From NCBI GenBank assembly GCA_965369605.1, contig CBDURE010000013.1, positions 1 to 43,124 on the forward strand: 43,124 nt of DNA. Reading direction: 5' to 3'. Shown here one piece after another: positions 10,591 through 42,744 of this stretch (position 1 is the first letter of the stretch; each line of letters opens with the position of its first letter). This DNA comes from an uncultured bacterium. GTDB lineage: Bacteria; JAJVIF01; JAGGVT01. The position numbers and the translations under genes were made by a program. Under the pieces are notes generated by a model, which did no database searches, was not told the origin of the DNA, and saw only the letters and a program-made list of their open reading frames with translations.

Positions 10591-10742
10591 CCTCACCCCC
10601 CAGCCCCCTCTCCACCATGTGGAGATGGGGAGCAGGAAAACGCTATGCGGAGATGGGGAGCAGGGAAACGCTATGCGGAGAGTGAAGGGTAAGAGTAATC
10701 TTACTCCCTTCTCCTGATGCAGGAGAGGGGCTGGGGGTGAGG
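10591..10742. repeat. MITE-like element family 1: terminal inverted repeats cctcaccccc.gcccctctcc / ggagaggggctgggggtgagg enclosing about 110 bp that contains a 30-bp tandem duplication
   Basis: TIRs read directly; internal tandem repeat atggggagcagg(g)aaaacgctatgcggag x2; same TIRs at 16285-16384, 17940-17985, 39171-39305. Confidence 0.7.
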
Positions 10743-10918
10743 TTCTTTAAGCCAGATAAAAAGCGACAGTTCCCTTTTGGAGTATTCTCAGTTATTTCTG
10801 TTTTCACCGGACAGTAGTGATTTGCGAAATGAATCGATAAAATTGTATAATTTGCACGGTTGGAGGGACTTGCCTGAATAGGCGTTTTTTTGTTTTATTC
10901 ATAGGAGATTTACTGAAT

Positions 10919-16270: not shown

Positions 16271-16284
16271 GGCTTACTATATGA

Positions 16285-16384
16285 CCTCACCCCTGACCCC
16301 TCTCCTGCATCCGGCGAGGGGAGAAAGCATAGTGCTTTTCTGTTCCCCCTCTCCTGATGCAGGAGAGGGGGCTAGGGGGTGAGG
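16285..16384. repeat. MITE-like family 1 copy (paired TIRs cctcacccc...ggggtgagg)
   Basis: gacctcacccctgacccctctcctgcatccggcgagggg ... cccctctcctgatgcaggagagggggctagggggtgagg. Confidence 0.7.
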
Positions 16385-16442
16385 TTTGATTAAAGCAATA
16401 CGGTATTTAGGTCTGAACTTAAAATGCAGGAAGGACAAAAAG

Positions 16443-17927: not shown

Positions 17928-17939
17928 TTGTAATAATGG

Positions 17940-17985
17940 CCTCACCCCCGGCCCCTCTCCTGCATCAGGAGAGGGGAGAAAGAGG
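17940..17985. repeat. MITE-like family 1 solo end forming hairpin cccctctcctgcatcaggagagggg, immediately after tolC-like stop (terminator-like)
   Basis: cctcacccccggcccctctcctgcatcaggagaggggag. Confidence 0.6.
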
Positions 17986-34435: not shown

Positions 34436-35377
34436 TCAGTCAAACAAGGAAAAGAGTTCGTTGATTTGTTCTTGATGATACTTACCGATAGAGCTGGTAT
34501 CAGAAGCATCCCCAAGATTGAAACAATTTTGGTTTTTTATTTGCTCCACATTCTGTTTAAGGCTCATCGACCCATGGGTATAGTTTTCTTCATCATACTT
34601 TAAAAGCAAGATACTGTGAGCCATCTGAGAAGAACGTGAATCGCCTTGATATTTAATCGAAGGTGCTTGAATTAACCGACAATTTCCTTTATTTTGAGGA
34701 TTAGTTATTTCTTTCCAAACTACTAAATGCCAATGTTTAACATCTTTTATATCAACATTATTTCTCAATTCAACTATTGATCTAAAGGATTCGCAAAAAT
34801 CAGACTTTGCCTGTTGGTTGCGGATAGCCATGTTAAATGTTAGTAGTAAAAGAATATAATGGCTTTTCTTGTTTGCTCCTGATAATAATTGCCTGATCTT
34901 CATAAGTAATGCTTCAATAACTTCTCGTTTTAGAATCTTTGTTATCTTCGACTCGTTTCTTAATGATTTTTCCTTATAATAAGTATCGCAAAAATCCAAG
35001 TTAATTAATGATAGATCAGGTGGTATATCAAGAGGTTTGTTGCTAAACATGCATTTTCCATTTTCGCAAATAAGTGATTCAACGGACCCAAAGAACAATT
35101 CATACTGATGATTGTGGAGATATAATTCAAACTTCAATTCCCACTCACCGTATTTTTTCATTTTTTCTTCTTCATTCAAATCTTCCAAGTTCTCATTATA
35201 TTCAATTGCGATGATCTTTTTCAAATTATCCTTCCAAGCTAAAACATCATGTATATCCAATCCTGGGAGTCCCAAATAAACCAGTCCATCATTGCCATTT
35301 GCCTGTTTAACCTTTTCAATATATGTTATATCTATGTGCTCTCTTATGAATTGCTTGTTTGGTGAATCAAAAGCCAT
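34436..35377 (-). CDS. Hypothetical protein (313 aa), partner translationally coupled to the GHKL ATPase; AT-rich island gene
   Basis: Start 1 nt after upstream stop; no recognisable motif; K/N/I-rich composition. Confidence 0.5.
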   Translation of the reverse strand: MAFDSPNKQFIREHIDITYIEKVKQANGNDGLVYLGLPGLDIHDVLAWKDNLKKIIAIEYNENLEDLNEEEKMKKYGEWELKFELYLHNHQYELFFGSVESLICENGKCMFSNKPLDIPPDLSLINLDFCDTYYKEKSLRNESKITKILKREVIEALLMKIRQLLSGANKKSHYILLLLTFNMAIRNQQAKSDFCESFRSIVELRNNVDIKDVKHWHLVVWKEITNPQNKGNCRLIQAPSIKYQGDSRSSQMAHSILLLKYDEENYTHGSMSLKQNVEQIKNQNCFNLGDASDTSSIGKYHQEQINELFSLFD

Positions 35378-35378
35378 A

Positions 35379-37046
35379 TTATTCTCCTCCTAATATAATA
35401 ATTTGAATGTCTGAATATACAGATTCCAGTTCAGATTGTGTTAACCTTTCCTCAAGAATGGAGTCAATCAATTTAAATACTTCTATTAGCTCGTCATTTT
35501 TGCCATGTGCACAATAATCATTTTGCAGCATAATCGACAAAATACTGTCAATGATTTCATCAGAGGTAATTGCTTCTTTTGCCTTTTCAATTTCTTTATC
35601 TGCTTGCTTCACAATATCATCAATCTTTTTACTTGATATTTCTTTATCCCGGGTAGAATATTTTTTTCGTTTTTGTATTCGATCTTTAATTCGTTTGGAA
35701 AGGACCTTTATTAATTCCTTAAGCTTCTTTTCTATATTCACATAATAAACACTGTGTGGCTGGGTTTCGATATCAAACCTACCATCAAGGGCATTTTTAT
35801 AATCTCTCCAGGATTTTAATTTATTTTTGGCATTTTCAATGCGATTCTTGTACATTAGCAAATCATCTGTTTTAGGATATTCAGAAATTTGTTCATGAAT
35901 ACTCGCCAGTTCATTTTTTGAATCCTCCAACCTTTCAGAAGATACATAATGATTATGGACTTTAGAAGAGTCCTCGCAGATGGTTCTAACGAGTTTGTCC
36001 AGGATTTTATTCAACTCAACTGATGTTGGACTGGGTTCAAAATCATCTCTTCCAGCTAGTGGTCGAAGGTCATCATGAGGTTCTATTAGAATCTCGCCTG
36101 TAGCTCTAATGTATTTAGAATGGTTAACAGAGAATTTTCTAAGGTAATCTCTATTACCAATAGAGAACCCCTTATATTTTACTAGCAGTCCTCTTATATT
36201 CATGTCTTTGAAAGGTAGTTTTGAATCATTAAAAACAGCCCATGCGTAAACATTCAATTTAACATTATTATCGGATTCGTAGTAAAAAAGTGGTCCAAGA
36301 CCTTGTTCGGTAAGGAATATTTTATTTGTGTATGGTCGATTTTGGGGAACATCATCAATGAAAATATCAACTTTACCGCTAAAATCTTTATTATATTCTG
36401 TGATACTAGATTCGAAAGAAAAAGTCGGATCAAATTTCAAAGGTACCGTGTTTTGTAGATATTCATTGAATCTATTTCTGTCTTTCATGTATTTATGCAT
36501 TTCAAGATCAAGGCCACTTAAGATTACCTTTGTTCCTTTAGATGTTGATACAGCGTCTGATGCATGATTCCCTATCTCAATTGAATCGCTGAGAAGATCA
36601 ACTAAACTAAGATGTTTTGTTGATTCTGTTAGTCGTGATTGTTGAATTTCATCAAGTTTAGTCTTCATATTTTCAAAATCGATTTTTAAGAATAAGGATC
36701 CACCTTTTTTCTTTTGTGTTAGCAAAATAAGTTGATCACAGTATGGAAATGCGCTAAAAATCCCGATTCCTCGAAAACCAACATTCACTCGTGGATCTTT
36801 TGTGGAAATCCCAAGTTTCTTTGCATCAGATAATTGCTTCATATTCATACCATCACCATCATCAACAATCACGATTGAATGAGGGTTTATTTTTATATCA
36901 ATTTTCGATGGATTGGAATCTATGCTATTCTGGATATATTCCCTGATTGAATCAAGAGGATGAACATATATTCCTTTTGTAAGAATCGATATAAGTTCAC
37001 TACCGATATCATCCTTTGTGAAGTTGGGAACTTTGATAGATTTCAT
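35379..37046 (-). CDS. GHKL-superfamily (MORC/HATPase_c_3-like) ATPase with long C-terminal coiled-coil region
   Basis: Bergerat-fold motifs in order: N-box EYIQNSID (ExxxNxxD), G1 DDGDGM (DxGxG), G2 GFRGIG (GxxGxG); start set at MKSIKVP (ggag RBS) rather than ORF-track Met at 37175, which would leave only 23 bp to the divergent gene. Confidence 0.7.
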   Translation of the reverse strand: MKSIKVPNFTKDDIGSELISILTKGIYVHPLDSIREYIQNSIDSNPSKIDIKINPHSIVIVDDGDGMNMKQLSDAKKLGISTKDPRVNVGFRGIGIFSAFPYCDQLILLTQKKKGGSLFLKIDFENMKTKLDEIQQSRLTESTKHLSLVDLLSDSIEIGNHASDAVSTSKGTKVILSGLDLEMHKYMKDRNRFNEYLQNTVPLKFDPTFSFESSITEYNKDFSGKVDIFIDDVPQNRPYTNKIFLTEQGLGPLFYYESDNNVKLNVYAWAVFNDSKLPFKDMNIRGLLVKYKGFSIGNRDYLRKFSVNHSKYIRATGEILIEPHDDLRPLAGRDDFEPSPTSVELNKILDKLVRTICEDSSKVHNHYVSSERLEDSKNELASIHEQISEYPKTDDLLMYKNRIENAKNKLKSWRDYKNALDGRFDIETQPHSVYYVNIEKKLKELIKVLSKRIKDRIQKRKKYSTRDKEISSKKIDDIVKQADKEIEKAKEAITSDEIIDSILSIMLQNDYCAHGKNDELIEVFKLIDSILEERLTQSELESVYSDIQIIILGGE

Positions 37047-37198
37047 TTTAAGACTCCGAAGTATTTCAGAGATATTTAAGAATTCTAGAACTGAAATTAT
37101 ACCAAAGCAAGAGCTCAGCTCATAGGAGAAATGTGTTTTCACCATGTCGTTCATGCTTGACAATATCGCGGTCATAATGTTAGCTTTCTGTTATTAAA

Positions 37199-38566
37199 AT
37201 GAAAAAGATACTTTTGATAGAACCAGATTATCGTTCAAAGTTTCCCCCTTTGGGATTGATGAAGATCTCTACCTTTCATAAGAATCGCGGTGATTGCGTT
37301 GCTTTTGCTCGTGGAAGAGAAGAAAATCTTAAAGCAGTAACATGGGACAGAATCTATATTTCTTCGCTATTTACGTGGGAATTGCCAAGAACATTAAAGA
37401 CAATTAAATATTACAAAGATTCGGTTACGTGCAGCAATGACTTAATAGTTGGTGGAACTGCAGTTACATTGAAACCAGATTTCATTTTGGATAATATCAA
37501 TTGCACAGTTGTGAAGGGACAGTTAGACAAACCAGGACTACTCGGTGCGAAAACACCAGCGATTGCCAACTTTGTGCCAGATTACTCGATTCTTGAAGAT
37601 GTTGATTTTGAATATAAACCTAAAGACGCGTATTTTTGCCGTATTACAAAGGGATGCGTTAGGAAATGCAAGTTTTGTGCGGTTCCGAAATTAGAACCAA
37701 CTTTTGGTTTTAATGGTGATGTGTTGAGTCAGGTTCGCAAAATTAAAAAGTTACATGGTGAAAAGCATGATTTGGTCATCCTGGATAATAATATTCTTGG
37801 GATAGATCGATTTGAAGAGATTATTACAAAGATAAAAAAATGTGGCTTTGAGAAAGATAGTAAACTGAATGGAAAGAAACGTGGTGTCGATTTCAATCAA
37901 GGCATTGATGCCAGGCTCATTAACTCGAAAAACGCAAAACTACTTGCATCAGTGTGCTTGTCGCCAGTTCGTTTGGCTTTCGATTTTGATGGTATGGAAA
38001 GAAAATATCGCAAGGCGGTACACACATTAGAAAATGTAGGATTTAGAACGTTCACGAATTATTGCCTTTTCAACTTTGAGGATTCACCGAGAAGTTTATA
38101 TCATAGACTAAGAGTAAACATTGAGCTGAATCGAGAATTAGGAATCAGGATAACTGGCTTTCCGATGCGTTACATACCTATAGATAGCATTAATCGTCGA
38201 CATATCGGACCAGAATGGCGATGGAAGTATTTAAGAGGAATTCAGTGCATTTTGCTCGCCACAAGAGGTCTTGTCAGCCCTAATCCTGCGTTTTTTGAAG
38301 CATCATTCGGTGAATCATATGAAAAATTCATTGAAATTATTTCAATGCCTGATAGATACATAATCTATAGAAATAAAAATAAAGAGGACGCAAAAGCTTG
38401 GCGTAGGAGATTCATTCACCTTAGCAGAGGAAGTAAAGAAGAATTATTTGAAATCCTTAAGAAGTTGAACAGCAGTCGAACTAGGAAAAAGAACATCATG
38501 GAGCACAAAAAGTTTCTAGGGCTTTTAGAGCACTACTATCCAAATGGTGAAATACATTATGAATAA
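37199..38566 (+). CDS. B12-binding-domain radical SAM protein (class B rSAM-like)
   Basis: N-terminal KILLIEPDY...PPLGL motif typical of cobalamin-binding domain of class B rSAM; CxxxCxxC cluster CVRKCKFC; divergent from GHKL operon; AT-rich. Confidence 0.65.
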   Translation: MKKILLIEPDYRSKFPPLGLMKISTFHKNRGDCVAFARGREENLKAVTWDRIYISSLFTWELPRTLKTIKYYKDSVTCSNDLIVGGTAVTLKPDFILDNINCTVVKGQLDKPGLLGAKTPAIANFVPDYSILEDVDFEYKPKDAYFCRITKGCVRKCKFCAVPKLEPTFGFNGDVLSQVRKIKKLHGEKHDLVILDNNILGIDRFEEIITKIKKCGFEKDSKLNGKKRGVDFNQGIDARLINSKNAKLLASVCLSPVRLAFDFDGMERKYRKAVHTLENVGFRTFTNYCLFNFEDSPRSLYHRLRVNIELNRELGIRITGFPMRYIPIDSINRRHIGPEWRWKYLRGIQCILLATRGLVSPNPAFFEASFGESYEKFIEIISMPDRYIIYRNKNKEDAKAWRRRFIHLSRGSKEELFEILKKLNSSRTRKKNIMEHKKFLGLLEHYYPNGEIHYE

Positions 38567-38605
38567 TAATCCAGCTTAAAAGGTGAATATCCTTCTAACC
38601 TCTCT

Positions 38606-38700
38606 AATCCTCGTCCTCTTCCTTATCCGATTTGCGGCGGTCTATTATTTTTTGGGCCGCTTCGTGGCCTGCTTCGTCGTAGTGGCTGAACTCGATTTCG
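38606..38700. repeat. 95-bp direct repeat A: degenerate duplicate (5 mismatches) of the last about 95 nt, including the stop, of the EF-G-like gene; partner B at 39310-39405
   Basis: taatcctcGtcctcttccttatccgatttgcggcggtcT... vs taatcctcAtcctcttccttatccgatttgcggcggtcG... Confidence 0.8.
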
Positions 38701-38801
38701 AATGTGGTAAACGCCCCCCTCTTATTAAGGTTTAAGAAAAATTGAAGAGAATTTTTCATTTCTTGCAGCGATTTTCGCTTCGGTGCCGTCTATTAGGCAC
38801 G

Positions 38802-39275
38802 ATGGATAAGTATTCAGAAGGCAGTCGAGCGGAAAATCACAGCAAACGAAGGAAACTGCGGCGGGAATCCACTGTTGCTGAAAAGAATCTGTGGGAAAGG
38901 CTTCGGAACAGGAATCTTAGCTACAAATTCCGCCGCCAGCATAATGTTGGCTATTACATCGCTGATTTCTATTGTGCAAGATTGATGCTTGCTGTTGAAA
39001 TTGATGGCGGCATACATTTGCAAAGGGATCATCTTGAGTATGATAAAGAGCGGGACAGGATTTTTCGATCAAAAGGTGTGAGGGTGTTAAGGTTTACCAA
39101 TGATAGAGTTATGAATGAAATGGATAAAGTATGTGATGAGATTGTTGCTGTGTGTGATGAAATGGGAAGACCTCACCCCCCGGCCCCCTCTCCACCTGTT
39201 TTGTCCACGGACAAGGTTTACACATTGTCAGGGACATGGTTTACACATGTCAAGGGTAATAATGGTACCCCCTAG
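38802..39275 (+). CDS. DUF559 (Vsr-like / restriction-endonuclease-fold) protein; C-terminal 30 aa are read-through into the MITE
   Basis: Conserved DUF559 pattern ...AEKNLWERLRNR...KFRRQHNVGYYIADFYC...LAVEIDGGIH...VLRFTN; tail PHPPAPSPP encoded by cctcaccccccggccccctctcc. Confidence 0.6.
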   Translation: MDKYSEGSRAENHSKRRKLRRESTVAEKNLWERLRNRNLSYKFRRQHNVGYYIADFYCARLMLAVEIDGGIHLQRDHLEYDKERDRIFRSKGVRVLRFTNDRVMNEMDKVCDEIVAVCDEMGRPHPPAPSPPVLSTDKVYTLSGTWFTHVKGNNGTP

Positions 39276-39305
39276 GGGGTTGCAGGAGAGGGGTCGGGGG
39301 TGAGG
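39171..39305. repeat. MITE-like family 1 copy with paired TIRs
   Basis: cctcaccccccggccccctctccacc ... ggagaggggtcgggggtgagg. Confidence 0.7.
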
Positions 39306-39308
39306 TTA

Positions 39309-41390
39309 TTAATCCTCATCCTCTTCCTTATCCGATTTGCGGCGGTCGATTATTTTTTGGGCAGCTTCGTGGCCTACTTCGTCGTAGTGGCTGAATTCGA
39401 TTTCGTAGGAGCCTCGACCGGATGTTATTGAATTGAGGTCAGCGACGTAATTCTGCAGTTCTGCCAGAGGAATAGTTGCCATTATTACCTGCAGGGAGCC
39501 TCGCGCCTCCATGTTCTGGATTCGAGCGCGTTTTGAGTTCAAATCGCCCATGATATCGCCCATGTATTCCTCGGGGATGAAGATTGTGGCGTTATAGACA
39601 GGCTCGAGCAGGATGGGGGTGGCGTCCACCCATCCCTTTTTGAAACTGATACGCGCCGCCTGTTTGAAAGCGATTTCCTTTGAGTCAACTTTGTGGTATG
39701 AGCCGAAGAAAAGGGTCGCTTTGAAATCGGTTGCGGGATAGCCCGCGAGTGGGCCATCCGACATGTATTCTCTCAAACCCTTTTCAACAGCGGGGATGAA
39801 AGAGTTCGGGATGACTCCGCCGACTATGGCATCGACGAATTCAAATCCGGCTCCGCGTTCCATAGGCTCGTAGCGGATGTGGACATCGCCGTACTGCCCC
39901 GCGCCTCCGGTCTGTTTCTTGTGCTTACCCTGCGCCTCAGACTTGCCCTTGATTGTTTCGCGATATGCGATTTCAGGAGTTTTGGTGTCAACGCCGACGT
40001 TGAATCGACGTTTAAGCTTTTGCAGCGCAACTGCCAGATGGTTCGGACCCATTCCGTTGAGAATCAATTCATGAGTTTCCTGGTTCCTGTCCCAGATAAG
40101 AGTGGGATCCTCTTCGGTCAGTTTGGTTAGCCCGGTTGTGATTCGCTGCTCGTCATCGCGGCTTTTTGGAGTAAGCGCGAGGGAGTAAATCGGCTGTGGG
40201 AAGTCGATAGGCGCATACACAACAGGCTGATCGGCTTTGGTTATAGTGTCGCTGGTGTTTGTTACAGTGAGTTTTACGAGAACTCCGATATCTCCGGCGA
40301 TAATCTCTTTTATAGTCTCATGCTCCTTGCCTTTCAGTTTAAGAAGCGCGCCGATTTTTTCCTTTTCGCCTCGTGATGTGTTGTACAGGTTGCTGTCGGC
40401 TGAGATTGTACCCGAGAAAACACGCACGATGTTGATTCGTCCGGCGAACGGGTCGATAGTGGTTTTCACCACAAACGCGCTGACAGGCGCGTTGACATCG
40501 GGTTCGCGATTCTCTTTTTCCTCTGTTCCCGGTTTCAAACCCTCTTTCGGGGGGAATTCAGCCGGTGATGGGAACATGTTGACAAGAGCGTCAGTAAGCG
40601 GCATGACTCCGTTGTTCAATGTTCCACTGCCGGCGAAAACAGGAATAATCTCACCCGATTTAATCGATTTTTTCAGTACCCTGAAGAAATCCTCAGGCGG
40701 AATGTCCTCGCCCTCGAGATATTTCTCCATTAGTTCCTCATCGTTTTCAGCGATTTTTTCAATCGTTTCAATGCGAAGAGTCTCGGCAATGTCGCTCATG
40801 TCAGCAGGAATATCCTCTTCGCGGATTTTTTTGCCGTCACCATCGGGATAAATCGCTTTCTGCTTGAGCAAATCAACGACACCCTTGAACCCTTCCTCTT
40901 TGCCAATAGGGATAGTCAGGGGCATTACGCCTTTGAAAATCTCTTTGATCTGCTGGAAAATGCGGTCGAAATCGGCGCGTTCCCTGTCCATTTTGCTGAT
41001 GAAAATAGCGCGCGCGTGGTTGCCGCTTATCGCGAATGAATTGACTTTCTCGGTCATAACCTCGACACCGTCAACAGCGCTGATAACAATCACCGCGATA
41101 TCCGCTGCCCTGAATGAGGCGCGAGCGTCGTTGATAAAATCGGGGAATCCCGGGGTGTCTATCAGGTTAATTACTGAGCCATTGTGTTTAACGGGATAAA
41201 ACGATGACGAAACCGAAATTTTACGCTCGATTTCATCCTCGAGGAAGTCCATTACAGTGTTGCCTTCATCTGTTTTGCCCAGGCGATTTAGTTCGCCTGT
41301 GTTGTATATCATTGCTTCGGCGATGGAGGTTTTTCCGCATCCACCGTGTCCCGCGAGTACAACATTCCTGAAATCATTCACGCTTGCCAT
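39309..41390 (-). CDS. Elongation factor G-family GTPase paralog (EF-G-like), non-canonical G1 region
   Basis: Five-domain EF-G-like length; G1 AGHGGCGKTS, DTPG (G3), NKMD-like SKMD (G4); start placed at Met preceded by aaggaga RBS (ORF track starts 23 codons upstream). Confidence 0.7.
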   Translation of the reverse strand: MASVNDFRNVVLAGHGGCGKTSIAEAMIYNTGELNRLGKTDEGNTVMDFLEDEIERKISVSSSFYPVKHNGSVINLIDTPGFPDFINDARASFRAADIAVIVISAVDGVEVMTEKVNSFAISGNHARAIFISKMDRERADFDRIFQQIKEIFKGVMPLTIPIGKEEGFKGVVDLLKQKAIYPDGDGKKIREEDIPADMSDIAETLRIETIEKIAENDEELMEKYLEGEDIPPEDFFRVLKKSIKSGEIIPVFAGSGTLNNGVMPLTDALVNMFPSPAEFPPKEGLKPGTEEKENREPDVNAPVSAFVVKTTIDPFAGRINIVRVFSGTISADSNLYNTSRGEKEKIGALLKLKGKEHETIKEIIAGDIGVLVKLTVTNTSDTITKADQPVVYAPIDFPQPIYSLALTPKSRDDEQRITTGLTKLTEEDPTLIWDRNQETHELILNGMGPNHLAVALQKLKRRFNVGVDTKTPEIAYRETIKGKSEAQGKHKKQTGGAGQYGDVHIRYEPMERGAGFEFVDAIVGGVIPNSFIPAVEKGLREYMSDGPLAGYPATDFKATLFFGSYHKVDSKEIAFKQAARISFKKGWVDATPILLEPVYNATIFIPEEYMGDIMGDLNSKRARIQNMEARGSLQVIMATIPLAELQNYVADLNSITSGRGSYEIEFSHYDEVGHEAAQKIIDRRKSDKEEDED

Positions 41391-42009: not shown

Positions 42010-42744
42010 ATGAGCAAAGACCAGGGCAGAATAATCCGGCTGGCAAGAGTTAAAAAAGGCTGGAATCAGCATGATTTAGGTGAGCGAACAGGGATTGTGC
42101 AGTCGCTGATAAGCCGTTATGAAAACGGTGTGAGAAACATCCCAAAACATGACCTGAAAAAAATCAAAAGAGCGCTTGGGCTTCGCGATGAGGATTTAAT
42201 GCCGGATGCCGATGAGCGAATCTTTTCGGAAATTCTCGATGAAAGACGGGATCGCCGCCGCGATATGGTTAAAAAGGATTTCCTTCACTTTTTAAGGGAA
42301 CTCGACAAACTTGGCGGACGTCTAAGCGAAATAACGGGCGGGGAAATTCAGATTCCGGTGCTGACTGATATTCCGGTTGGATGCCCTGTCCCGGTGATTG
42401 ATGAAAAATACATTGACAGAATGGAAGCGCTGCCGCACGGATGGGTTGAATCTGAGAAAATATTCGGCCTGGTTATCAACGATGACTCAATGGATGGTTT
42501 GGGATTGTATTCCGGTGACACTGTTTTTGTTAATCGTCAAAATATTGAAATTGGCGGCCAGGGCAGGGTCATGGCGATTGGCACGAAAAAAGGCCTGGTC
42601 ATACGGACCGTTGTACGGCATAAGGACAAACTGCGATTAATCGCTGAGAATCCACGTTTCGAAGTTCAGGAAATATCCCCCGATGATGTTCATATCTATG
42701 GAACTCTTATTAAGTATGTTTCGAAAGCAAAACTTGGATTATAG
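42010..42744 (+). CDS. LexA/cI-like repressor: N-terminal XRE-type HTH plus C-terminal S24 peptidase domain
   Basis: HTH region GWNQHDLGERTGIVQSLISRYENG; S24 motifs NDDSMDG (Ser) and downstream AIGTKKG (Lys); tataat 8 bp upstream. Confidence 0.7.
   Translation: MSKDQGRIIRLARVKKGWNQHDLGERTGIVQSLISRYENGVRNIPKHDLKKIKRALGLRDEDLMPDADERIFSEILDERRDRRRDMVKKDFLHFLRELDKLGGRLSEITGGEIQIPVLTDIPVGCPVPVIDEKYIDRMEALPHGWVESEKIFGLVINDDSMDGLGLYSGDTVFVNRQNIEIGGQGRVMAIGTKKGLVIRTVVRHKDKLRLIAENPRFEVQEISPDDVHIYGTLIKYVSKAKLGL

Follow-up and report, generated by a model that had tools for sequence, protein, structure and literature searches.

ATPases of the GHKL/paraMORC kind are established components of restriction-modification (R-M) operons, and it has been proposed that they loop DNA (PMC2292703). 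The published CxC-ABC/DndE (Pbe) systems contain a slot that holds either the phosphorothioation genes DndCDEA or cytosine methylases (PMC10853773), and Ophion (OpnA) is a defence system composed of a radical S-adenosylmethionine (SAM) enzyme, a PHP protein and a phosphoribosyltransferase (PRTase) (bioRxiv 10.1101/2025.09.30.679545). Here we analyse a stretch of 43,124 nucleotides from an uncultured bacterium (contig CBDURE010000013.1; "the window" denotes this whole stretch), which contains an AT-rich island (34436-38566) with three intact open reading frames (ORFs): 34436..35377 on the minus strand, coding for a partner protein of 313 aa with a predicted class I SAM-methyltransferase fold, distantly related to the PP_RS20740 family; 35379..37175, also on the minus strand, a 598-aa frame that contains a GHKL ATPase; and 37199..38566 on the plus strand, coding for a radical SAM enzyme (rSAM) of 455 aa, predicted to consist of a B12-type Rossmann N-terminal domain, a radical SAM barrel and a basic helical C-terminal domain. 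Our preferred reading, to which we give about even chances, is that the island is an R-M-like three-gene conflict module belonging to a large and undescribed family centred on the rSAM, in which this enzyme would modify DNA. What is new is the combination of the trio and the fact that many restriction-like cassettes have one rSAM in common as their terminal gene; the parts themselves are of known kinds, namely GHKL ATPases of R-M systems, Rossmann methyltransferases and B12-type rSAM enzymes.

The first-pass annotation of the window had taken the three genes for a single module, and the trio indeed recurs. In all 13 independent loci of the partner family that were examined (L001-L004, L007, L017, L054, L061, L091, L092, L184-L186 and the window itself), the GHKL gene lies directly upstream of the partner gene and a radical SAM gene is found within one gene, with protein identities to the window of 21-33% and with varying gene order and orientation. 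The order is GHKL-partner-rSAM in L001/2, L003 and L004 (377 aa), in L017, L054 and L061, in L091 and in L186; it is rSAM-GHKL-partner in L007/8, and in L184 and L185 the rSAM (650 aa) is convergent. In L092/93 the GHKL-partner pair is followed by a different rSAM, a canonical B12-binding/Radical_SAM protein of 510 aa (8953-10485 in L092 and 3661-5193 in L093) that reaches 17.5 bits to the window-family profile. Here the rSAM component has apparently been replaced by a non-orthologous protein, which argues that the GHKL-partner pair may need B12-type rSAM chemistry. Partner proteins are 27-33% identical beside a conserved rSAM (53-62%), and such fast divergence of a partner would be typical of conflict systems. 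In agreement with the defence-like character first ascribed to the island, the relatives lie among R-M, toxin-antitoxin, integrase, resolvase, KAP NTPase and plasmid genes, the neighbours in the sampled loci including MmeI-like R-M, ArdC, integrase, HigB, HepT/MNT, KAP NTPase, resolvase and excisionase-type helix-turn-helix (HTH) proteins.

These neighbourhoods bear on whether the trio could belong to a biosynthetic operon for a ribosomally synthesised and post-translationally modified peptide (RiPP), a cofactor or a lipid, with a class B radical SAM methylase tailoring a small molecule or peptide. Many rSAM enzymes with a B12-binding domain are biosynthetic, and the window rSAM shows a weak NCBIfam likeness (E = 1e-3 to 1e-2) to the ladderane lipid, PhpK, HpnR and BchE families, but the scores are at most 20 bits against cut-offs of 250-650, about 190 loci lack conserved precursor peptide, transporter, tailoring or scaffold neighbours, and instead keep DNA ATPases, helicases and nucleases next to the rSAM, so that we regard this explanation as highly improbable. 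Pfam, NCBIfam and PADLOC gave no RiPP, cofactor or named-defence assignment. In PADLOC-DB v2.0.0 the partner and the rSAM had no hits at E <= 0.1 and the GHKL protein matched only MzaB/TmtA weakly, at 10-14 bits; in NCBIfam nothing scored above cut-off for the three proteins or their relatives; and in the searchable full-text literature, which leaves out subscription journals, the trio and this rSAM family are undescribed. All three sources agree with the initial remark that the combination is not recognised as any named system.

The unit reaches beyond the trio seen in the first-pass annotation, the rSAM being the hub of a large family of cassettes. This rSAM family comprises more than 5,975 homologues, the best 120 of which are 53-62% identical and come from across phyla, and it is present in at least 498 GTDB species, which represent many bacterial phyla and include some archaea. 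ORFs were called and clustered in 90 rSAM loci, our own ORF calling being crude in the high-GC ones. The gene upstream of the rSAM is co-directional in 77 of 79 GTDB loci and lies within 120 bp in 67 of them, and the rSAM almost always comes last in variable DNA-handling cassettes, of which there are at least six types: NurA-HerA-GHKL (type A; PDB 7f6d, E = 3e-4 and 7e-52); ParB-N, a small protein, SNF2 and ParB-N (type B, the PD-(D/E)xK-like motif of the small protein having been read by eye, with no family hit); PbeA (HKD-helicase, 1e-227), PbeC (CxC ABC ATPase, 1e-172) and a small DndE-like protein, the last a weak match (type C); GHKL-partner, the window's own type (type D); a DGQHR/DndB/DpdB-like protein with or without a metallo-beta-lactamase (MBL; type E); and large helicases with NERD-UvrD, followed by a GHKL gene downstream (type F). 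The enzymes nearest to the window rSAM belong to type A (59-61%) and, in one case, to type D (58%), and among nearest-neighbour rSAMs only 41 of 66 share a cassette type; since relatives are thus found in differing types, the rSAM appears to be exchanged among cassettes.

Cultured examples of rSAM cassettes are found on plasmids. The conjugative plasmid pNL1 of Novosphingobium aromaticivorans has the order PIN-like, GHKL, DGQHR, rSAM, GHKL, and the Rhizobium plasmid pCC511_1 (L175) combines types B and E. In pNL1 (L174, NC_009426.1 114946-122990) and L175, a nameless and recurrent pair of a PIN-like protein and an Hsp90-like GHKL protein lies beside DGQHR-rSAM-GHKL. The NurA-HerA-GHKL-rSAM operon is the commonest GHKL-containing context (L005, L007, L011, L014, L016, L022, L024, L026, L028, L032 and others), its cassette spanning about 6 kb upstream of each rSAM, and in L007/L008 it stands directly before a second GHKL gene and a partner gene, so that two cassettes flank one rSAM. 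Two DGQHR-MBL-rSAM copies with identical neighbour patterns are present about 26 kb apart on contig DAINAU010000004.1 (L051, L052), the result of either a large duplication or a faulty assembly.

Prokaryotic viperins are proven radical SAM defence effectors. A terminal gene that stays constant while its upstream modules vary would also be the pattern of one effector served by many sensors, and the rSAM could accordingly be switched on by variable ATPase or helicase sensors to make a viperin-like nucleotide analogue or to cause radical damage to nucleic acids, halting replication or killing the cell. The proof of radical SAM enzymes in defence (viperins; Ophion, bioRxiv 10.1101/2025.09.30.679545), the terminal operon position and the lack of another obvious effector in the GHKL-partner variant would fit such a role. 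However, most cassettes already hold their own nucleases (sister cassettes carry HKD in PbeA, NurA, the small restriction-endonuclease-like protein, metallo-beta-lactamase or PIN), PADLOC gave no match to prokaryotic viperin (pVip) or any other model, the predicted rSAM fold is of the B12-type two-domain class and not viperin-like, and a toxic effector would be odd as a solitary gene in more than 500 phage contigs, at the position of phage methyltransferases. We therefore consider an effector role rather unlikely.

Solitary copies of the rSAM are in fact abundant in phages. Against phrog_9298 ("radical SAM domain protein") the window rSAM scores 2e-43, and more than 545 IMG/VR contigs (including L094-L173) encode relatives, mostly as solitary proteins of about 290 aa that lack the C-terminal domain. 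Seventeen phage records carry the gene, among them those of Bacteroides and Phocaeicola phages, Clostridium phage phiCT453B, Marinitoga camini virus 1 and Methanomassiliicoccales viruses (for example, NC_029004.1 9456-10331, PV036431.1 28948-30072 and NC_134205.1 49954-51264). The phage gene is placed between replication or recombination genes (DnaB, DnaD, RusA, exonuclease, helicase, Erf/RecE) and HNH/terminase genes, and in a single phage there is an overlap with the end of a DNA methyltransferase gene. The interval between replication and packaging genes is the typical place of phage anti-restriction methyltransferases.

The same neighbours could be read as a sign of DNA repair or maintenance. 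Spore photoproduct lyase, a radical SAM enzyme, repairs DNA and provides a precedent for a non-immune system of mobile elements and phages in which the rSAM would reverse lesions together with MutL-like, NurA-HerA and SNF2 proteins; NurA-HerA (end resection), MutL-like GHKL, SNF2 and UvrD-like helicases are all repair-type proteins, and the phage copies adjoin RusA, exonuclease and Erf/RecE recombination genes. We give this explanation a low probability, as the distribution is patchy and horizontally transferred (AT-rich islands, plasmids, toxin-antitoxin and R-M surroundings), the rSAM is found together with PbeA (annotated as "DNA phosphorothioation system restriction enzyme", E = 1.8e-144) and with DGQHR proteins, which typify modification-restriction systems, and the partners diverge fast next to a conserved rSAM.

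The window rSAM contains the [4Fe-4S]/SAM-binding motif CxxxCxxC in the form CVRKCKFC (aa 153-160, with C153, C157 and C160; 37655..37678, plus strand), which is invariant in 120 homologues, and the radical SAM motif read from the sequence at first sight is thereby confirmed. Matches to Pfam Radical_SAM (5.4e-5, 23.9 bits vs a cut-off of 29.5) and B12-binding (2.7e-3, 18 bits vs 32.1) are below threshold. The AlphaFold2 model (pLDDT 94.6) is composed of an N-terminal Rossmann domain, a barrel and an all-helical C-terminal domain and matches radical SAM structures with probability 1.00, and by motif and model the protein is assigned to the radical SAM superfamily. As for the cobalamin domain that had been claimed from an N-terminal motif, a Rossmann-type domain is present in the predicted fold, but the sequence support is weak, at the 18 bits just given; "B12-binding" stands here for a fold resemblance and a putative use of the cofactor. 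The protein is strongly basic (pI = 9.6), and its N-terminal domain has a single near-invariant cysteine, C102. Foldseek retrieved MgmA (2e-11), AprD4 (template modelling (TM) score 0.60), MiaB/MtaB/RimO and OxsB, at identities of 9-15%. An identity as a MiaB/RimO/MtaB methylthiotransferase was rejected, with RimO/MiaB NCBIfam scores of 14-17 bits vs cut-offs of 251-357 and an all-helical C-terminal domain in place of a TRAM domain. The C-terminal extension of about 230 aa in the 686-aa versions of the rSAM contains no Pfam domain, and a 735-aa "N-terminal extension" in L114 was discarded as an ORF-calling artefact in high-GC DNA.

The partner belongs to a rare family. A single-sequence search found five homologues in 5.8 billion proteins, a profile search at least 122, and an exhaustive HMMER scan 380 representatives (50% identity) among 1.84 billion; when about 3,000 neighbour ORFs were searched with a profile, partner-like domains turned up in GHKL-partner loci and nowhere else. 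It has no Pfam family. It reaches 24.6 bits to the NCBIfam PP_RS20740_fam (NF047698 / PF28273) over residues 6-50 only, against a cut-off of 200, and its relatives reach 28-36 bits, many homologues carrying precomputed PF28273 hits; with a partial-length score below cut-off, it is a distant PP_RS20740 relative and not a member by the NCBI criterion. The gene that gives this family its name, PP_RS20740 of Pseudomonas putida KT2440, codes for a hypothetical protein; it acquired V338F in an adaptive evolution experiment on furfural tolerance, and tolerance rose when the mutant was over-expressed (PMC9630843); this is the only paper on it in the searchable literature. The partner had been called unknown, but a methyltransferase fold is now recognised by structure match, and on its predicted model the partner is a class I SAM-methyltransferase-fold protein. 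A motif I-like YLGLPG (aa 34-39; 35261..35278, minus strand) follows the predicted strand 1, with Y34, G36 and P38 invariant and G39 present in 67 of 73 family members, and a motif IV-like NLDFCD (aa 126-131; 34985..35002, minus strand) stands at the end of the predicted central strand, with L127, D128, F129 and C130 invariant and N126 present in 71 of the 73; judging from the fold match, NLDFCD probably occupies the place of catalytic motif IV in Rossmann methyltransferases. Against viral structures, only generic methyltransferase matches were obtained (TM-scores <=0.40).

The top structural match of the partner is the tRNA methyltransferase Trm1, and the folds of both candidate modifiers could therefore be taken as a sign that the module acts on tRNA or rRNA, with a Trm1-like methyltransferase, a MiaB/RimO-like rSAM and an Hsp90/MutL-like ATPase that would, for example, bias translation against invaders. 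The rSAM matches MiaB, MtaB and RimO (RNA-bound MiaB structures at E about 1e-8), and its sole sequence match in the PDB is RimO, at E = 0.03. Yet identities to those rSAM enzymes are 9-15% with TM-scores of about 0.5, the N-terminal three-cysteine (auxiliary) cluster of MiaB/RimO is missing from the family, in which only C153, C157 and C160 are invariant, all partner cassettes are DNA-centred (DndD/DndE-like, ParB/DGQHR, HerA-NurA, SNF2, HKD-helicase), and the phage copies lie among DNA replication and packaging genes, which makes an RNA-modifying module improbable.

The window ATPase matches Pfam HATPase_c_3 above cut-off (E = 1e-12) and contains the complete Bergerat motif set that had been reported: EYIQNSID (ExxxNxxD; aa 79-86, nt 36918-36941), DDGDG (DxGxG; aa 105-109, nt 36849-36863) and GFRGIG (GxxGxG; aa 133-138, nt 36762-36779), all on the minus strand and in the numbering of the 598-aa frame, as well as KGTKV, the Thr-containing motif IV. 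G90, G93, G95 and T172 are invariant among nine homologues. A profile of these nine found, for the ATP-binding domain only, HtpG/Hsp90 N-domains (3.5e-15), MutL (1e-9) and MORC3 (3e-8) in the PDB; by sequence, the protein is a member of the GHKL superfamily, and of the original label "MORC/GHKL" the GHKL half holds, but the MORC half is not specifically shown, as HtpG and then MutL score above MORC3. Past the ATPase domain there is a conserved middle region (RGLL..GF.IG, GEI, R..FE) and then a poorly conserved helical tail. Since homologue alignments begin at residue ~54 of the long frame and M44 (nt 37046) is preceded by a GGAG Shine-Dalgarno sequence 7 nt upstream, the gene is placed at 35379..37046 (555 aa, minus strand), within an open frame that extends up to 37175. 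The partner ATG (35377) is located 1 nt past the GHKL stop codon (35379-35381), exactly as first noted, with a Shine-Dalgarno sequence, AGGAGGAG, inside the GHKL 3' end; this spacing and the Shine-Dalgarno sequence fit translational coupling of GHKL and partner.

If the island is an R-M-like module with a DNA-modifying rSAM, the enzyme could use a 5'-deoxyadenosyl radical, possibly with cobalamin, to write a covalent DNA mark that labels self. The GHKL ATPase would dimerise in an ATP-dependent manner and form a clamp or loop on DNA, as modelled on MutL and on the MORC/paraMORC ATPases of R-M operons, thereby delivering or coupling the enzymes to their sites, and the methyltransferase-fold partner may recognise or flip the target base, or add a second SAM-dependent modification. 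A further-reaching version, which we put forward tentatively and hold to be the less probable of the two, is that the rSAM is a new DNA-modifying enzyme that provides a radical-chemistry self-mark to a modular restriction superfamily and has been captured by phages as an anti-restriction function. The mark would then be a C-methyl group or other adduct on an unactivated carbon of a base or sugar, the superfamily would take in GHKL with a methyltransferase-fold partner, NurA-HerA-GHKL, ParB-SNF2, Pbe-like and DGQHR cassettes, and the phage rSAM copies would shield phage DNA as orphan methyltransferases do.

Several observations weigh against the R-M-like reading of the island. It is the neighbouring genes only that point to DNA as a probable target of the rSAM, and the structural matches act elsewhere (Trm1 on tRNA; MgmA, AprD4, MiaB and RimO on protein, aminoglycoside, tRNA and ribosomal protein, respectively), so that an RNA or protein target is conceivable. 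Use of cobalamin by the rSAM is putative, the Pfam B12-binding match being below threshold, and AprD4, which has a B12-type domain and ranks second among the structural matches, is not known to use this cofactor. In the partner, the acidic ribose-binding position of strand 2 is Q in 32 of 73 members, which makes its catalytic competence uncertain. No nuclease domain was found in the three island proteins by Pfam and homologue alignment, nor any nuclease motif in the poorly conserved helical C-terminus of the GHKL protein; with no recognisable nuclease, the GHKL-partner variant may be modification-only, clamp-silencing or reliant on an unlinked nuclease. As regards R-M components, the window has two candidate modifiers, the rSAM and the partner, and no nuclease is gained from the adjacent DUF559 gene, which was rejected as a fourth component: it is absent from about 170 other loci and not conserved with the system, has 44% GC and lies inside its own duplication of the EF-G-like 3' end. 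The divergent orientation of the window rSAM relative to the other two genes is unusual, an opposite-strand upstream gene being found in only 1 of 79 sampled loci. A scan for sigma-70 consensus sites found none in the 152-bp divergent spacer and no excess over the region as a whole (21 found vs 16.4 expected), so that both divergent promoters are presumed. The defence role, the chemistry and the target that we infer for the module should all be read as provisional.

The island itself is well delimited. Its GC content is 34.3%, compared with 45.8% for the remainder of the 43-kb window; by gene it is 33.1% (partner), 32.9% (GHKL) and 36.9% (rSAM), vs 51.4% for the flanking nadK and 49.7% for the elongation factor G (EF-G)-like gene. 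The 148 1-kb windows outside the island have a mean GC of 0.457 (standard deviation 0.027, minimum 0.377), and all 13 inside are at or below 0.375, under the outside minimum. Lys, Asn and Ile together make up 24-27% of the residues of the three proteins, vs 15-21% in neighbour proteins. The left border falls in the 103-bp spacer 3' of nadK and the right border no more than 40 bp past the rSAM stop codon. The first-pass annotation had described, by eye, a sharply AT-rich block of K/N/I-rich proteins beside nadK, an EF-G-like gene and a small endonuclease cassette, and each element of that description is confirmed by the GC profile, the residue counts or Pfam annotation: the compositional island is real, with sharp borders, and it is compositionally foreign and probably horizontally acquired. 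No integrase or transposase was found in 34.3-38.7 kb, no direct or inverted repeat brackets the island and the window has no tRNA, and the island was not classed as an integrative mobile element. The sole close relative of nadK in metagenomes (69% identity) has a HAD-like gene after it, and as nadK synteny is not conserved, the empty-site comparison is uninformative. The divergent intergenic region (37047..37198; 152 bp, 34.2% GC) is the presumed site of both promoters, and its earlier estimate of about 150 bp agrees with a GHKL start at M44 but not with the longest ORF, which would leave only 23 bp. An Rfam search of 33-42 kb at gathering thresholds matched no RNA family, and therefore no B12 riboswitch.

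The genes that flank the island are nadK, the DUF559 endonuclease gene and the EF-G-like gene. The DUF559/Vsr-like ORF (38742-39275; Pfam DUF559, E = 1.6e-32) is bracketed by a 96-nt direct repeat, 95% identical (38605-38700 and 39310-39405), which is the duplicated 3' end of the EF-G-like gene. An endonuclease cassette of about 705 bp was apparently inserted into this 3' end with restoration of the gene end, and the remnant copy abuts the AT-rich island. A GC-rich motif, GAGGGGTCGGGGGTGAGGT, has five copies in the window vs 0.01 expected (10725-10743, 16284-16302, 16367-16385, 17939-17957 and 39288-39306), with an inverted partner at 39170-39190, and resembles a REP-like intergenic repeat of the host; the inverted pair reaches into the 3' part of the DUF559 ORF, whose last ~35 codons are therefore unlikely to be genuinely coding. 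The EF-G-like ORF was called with a TTG start, and about 0.5 kb past it there is a LexA/CI-like repressor gene (HTH_3 and Peptidase_S24; 42010-42744, plus strand).

Should the proposed DNA-modifying role be correct, the rSAM of at least 498 species and hundreds of phage contigs would write an as yet unknown DNA mark that is read by many restriction machines, bringing new chemistry to prokaryotic epigenetics and to phage-host conflict. It would be a third self-marking chemistry, beside SAM-methylation and phosphorothioation/deazaguanine insertion, it would explain the orphan "radical SAM domain protein" genes of gut Bacteroides, Clostridium and archaeal viruses, and it would supply a function for PP_RS20740-like proteins. 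The system could matter for the transformation of anaerobes, and new DNA-modifying tools might be derived from it. Even if the target is not DNA, one enzyme is terminal in at least six unrelated DNA-handling cassettes and undescribed in the available resources.

Among the systems described so far, the MORC/paraMORC operons (Iyer, Abhiman & Aravind 2008, PMC2292703) share with the island an intact GHKL ATPase, a methyltransferase-fold protein, a mobile and sporadic operon and a Vsr-type (DUF559) endonuclease nearby, with ATP-driven DNA clamping or looping as the proposed role. However, the word "radical" is found nowhere in the text of PMC2292703, and the window ATPase is closer to HtpG/Hsp90 and MutL than to MORC3 and has no linked helicase or nuclease. 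In the PbeABCD/Dnd systems, relatives of the window rSAM are terminal in PbeA-PbeC-DndE-like operons, at the place where modification genes sit (PMC10853773), whereas the window has no Pbe or Dnd genes; mentions of "radical SAM" in PMC10853773 concern DndC only, and none concerns an enzyme in this slot. The Dpd 7-deazaguanine system has the same architecture, in which a modifying enzyme is combined with a DNA-loading protein and restriction helicases, and in many of the rSAM loci a DGQHR/DpdB-like ParB-fold protein and SNF2/DpdE-like helicases accompany the enzyme, but the Dpd modifier is a transglycosylase in place of the radical SAM enzyme found here, queuosine-pathway genes are missing from these loci, and the window variant has no DGQHR protein. 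Mza, through its GHKL ATPase MzaB, is the only named defence model with any likeness to the window ATPase, although the 14-16 bits, against a cut-off of 850, reflect ATP-binding motifs only, and no other Mza genes are present.

At the level of single proteins, the closest folds to the partner are those of Trm1 and of the R-M amino-methyltransferases HsdM and BsaXI, at about 10% identity; unlike these, the partner has a D-F-C motif with an invariant cysteine, a ribose-binding acidic residue that is often replaced by glutamine, and no identified target-recognition domain. Viperin and Ophion resemble the module in having a radical SAM enzyme inside an anti-invader gene cluster, but their enzymes are of another rSAM class, the partners are PHP and PRTase in Ophion and none in pVip, and the window-type rSAM is common to many DNA-handling cassettes and has phage-encoded copies as well. 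The class B or B12-domain enzymes MgmA, OxsB and AprD4 share with the rSAM the N-terminal Rossmann (B12-type) domain and the CxxxCxxC barrel (Foldseek E = 2e-11 to 1e-6, TM 0.49-0.60, identity 12-15%); their substrates are a protein glutamine, a nucleoside and an aminoglycoside, respectively, whereas the rSAM family has a basic helical C-terminal domain of its own.

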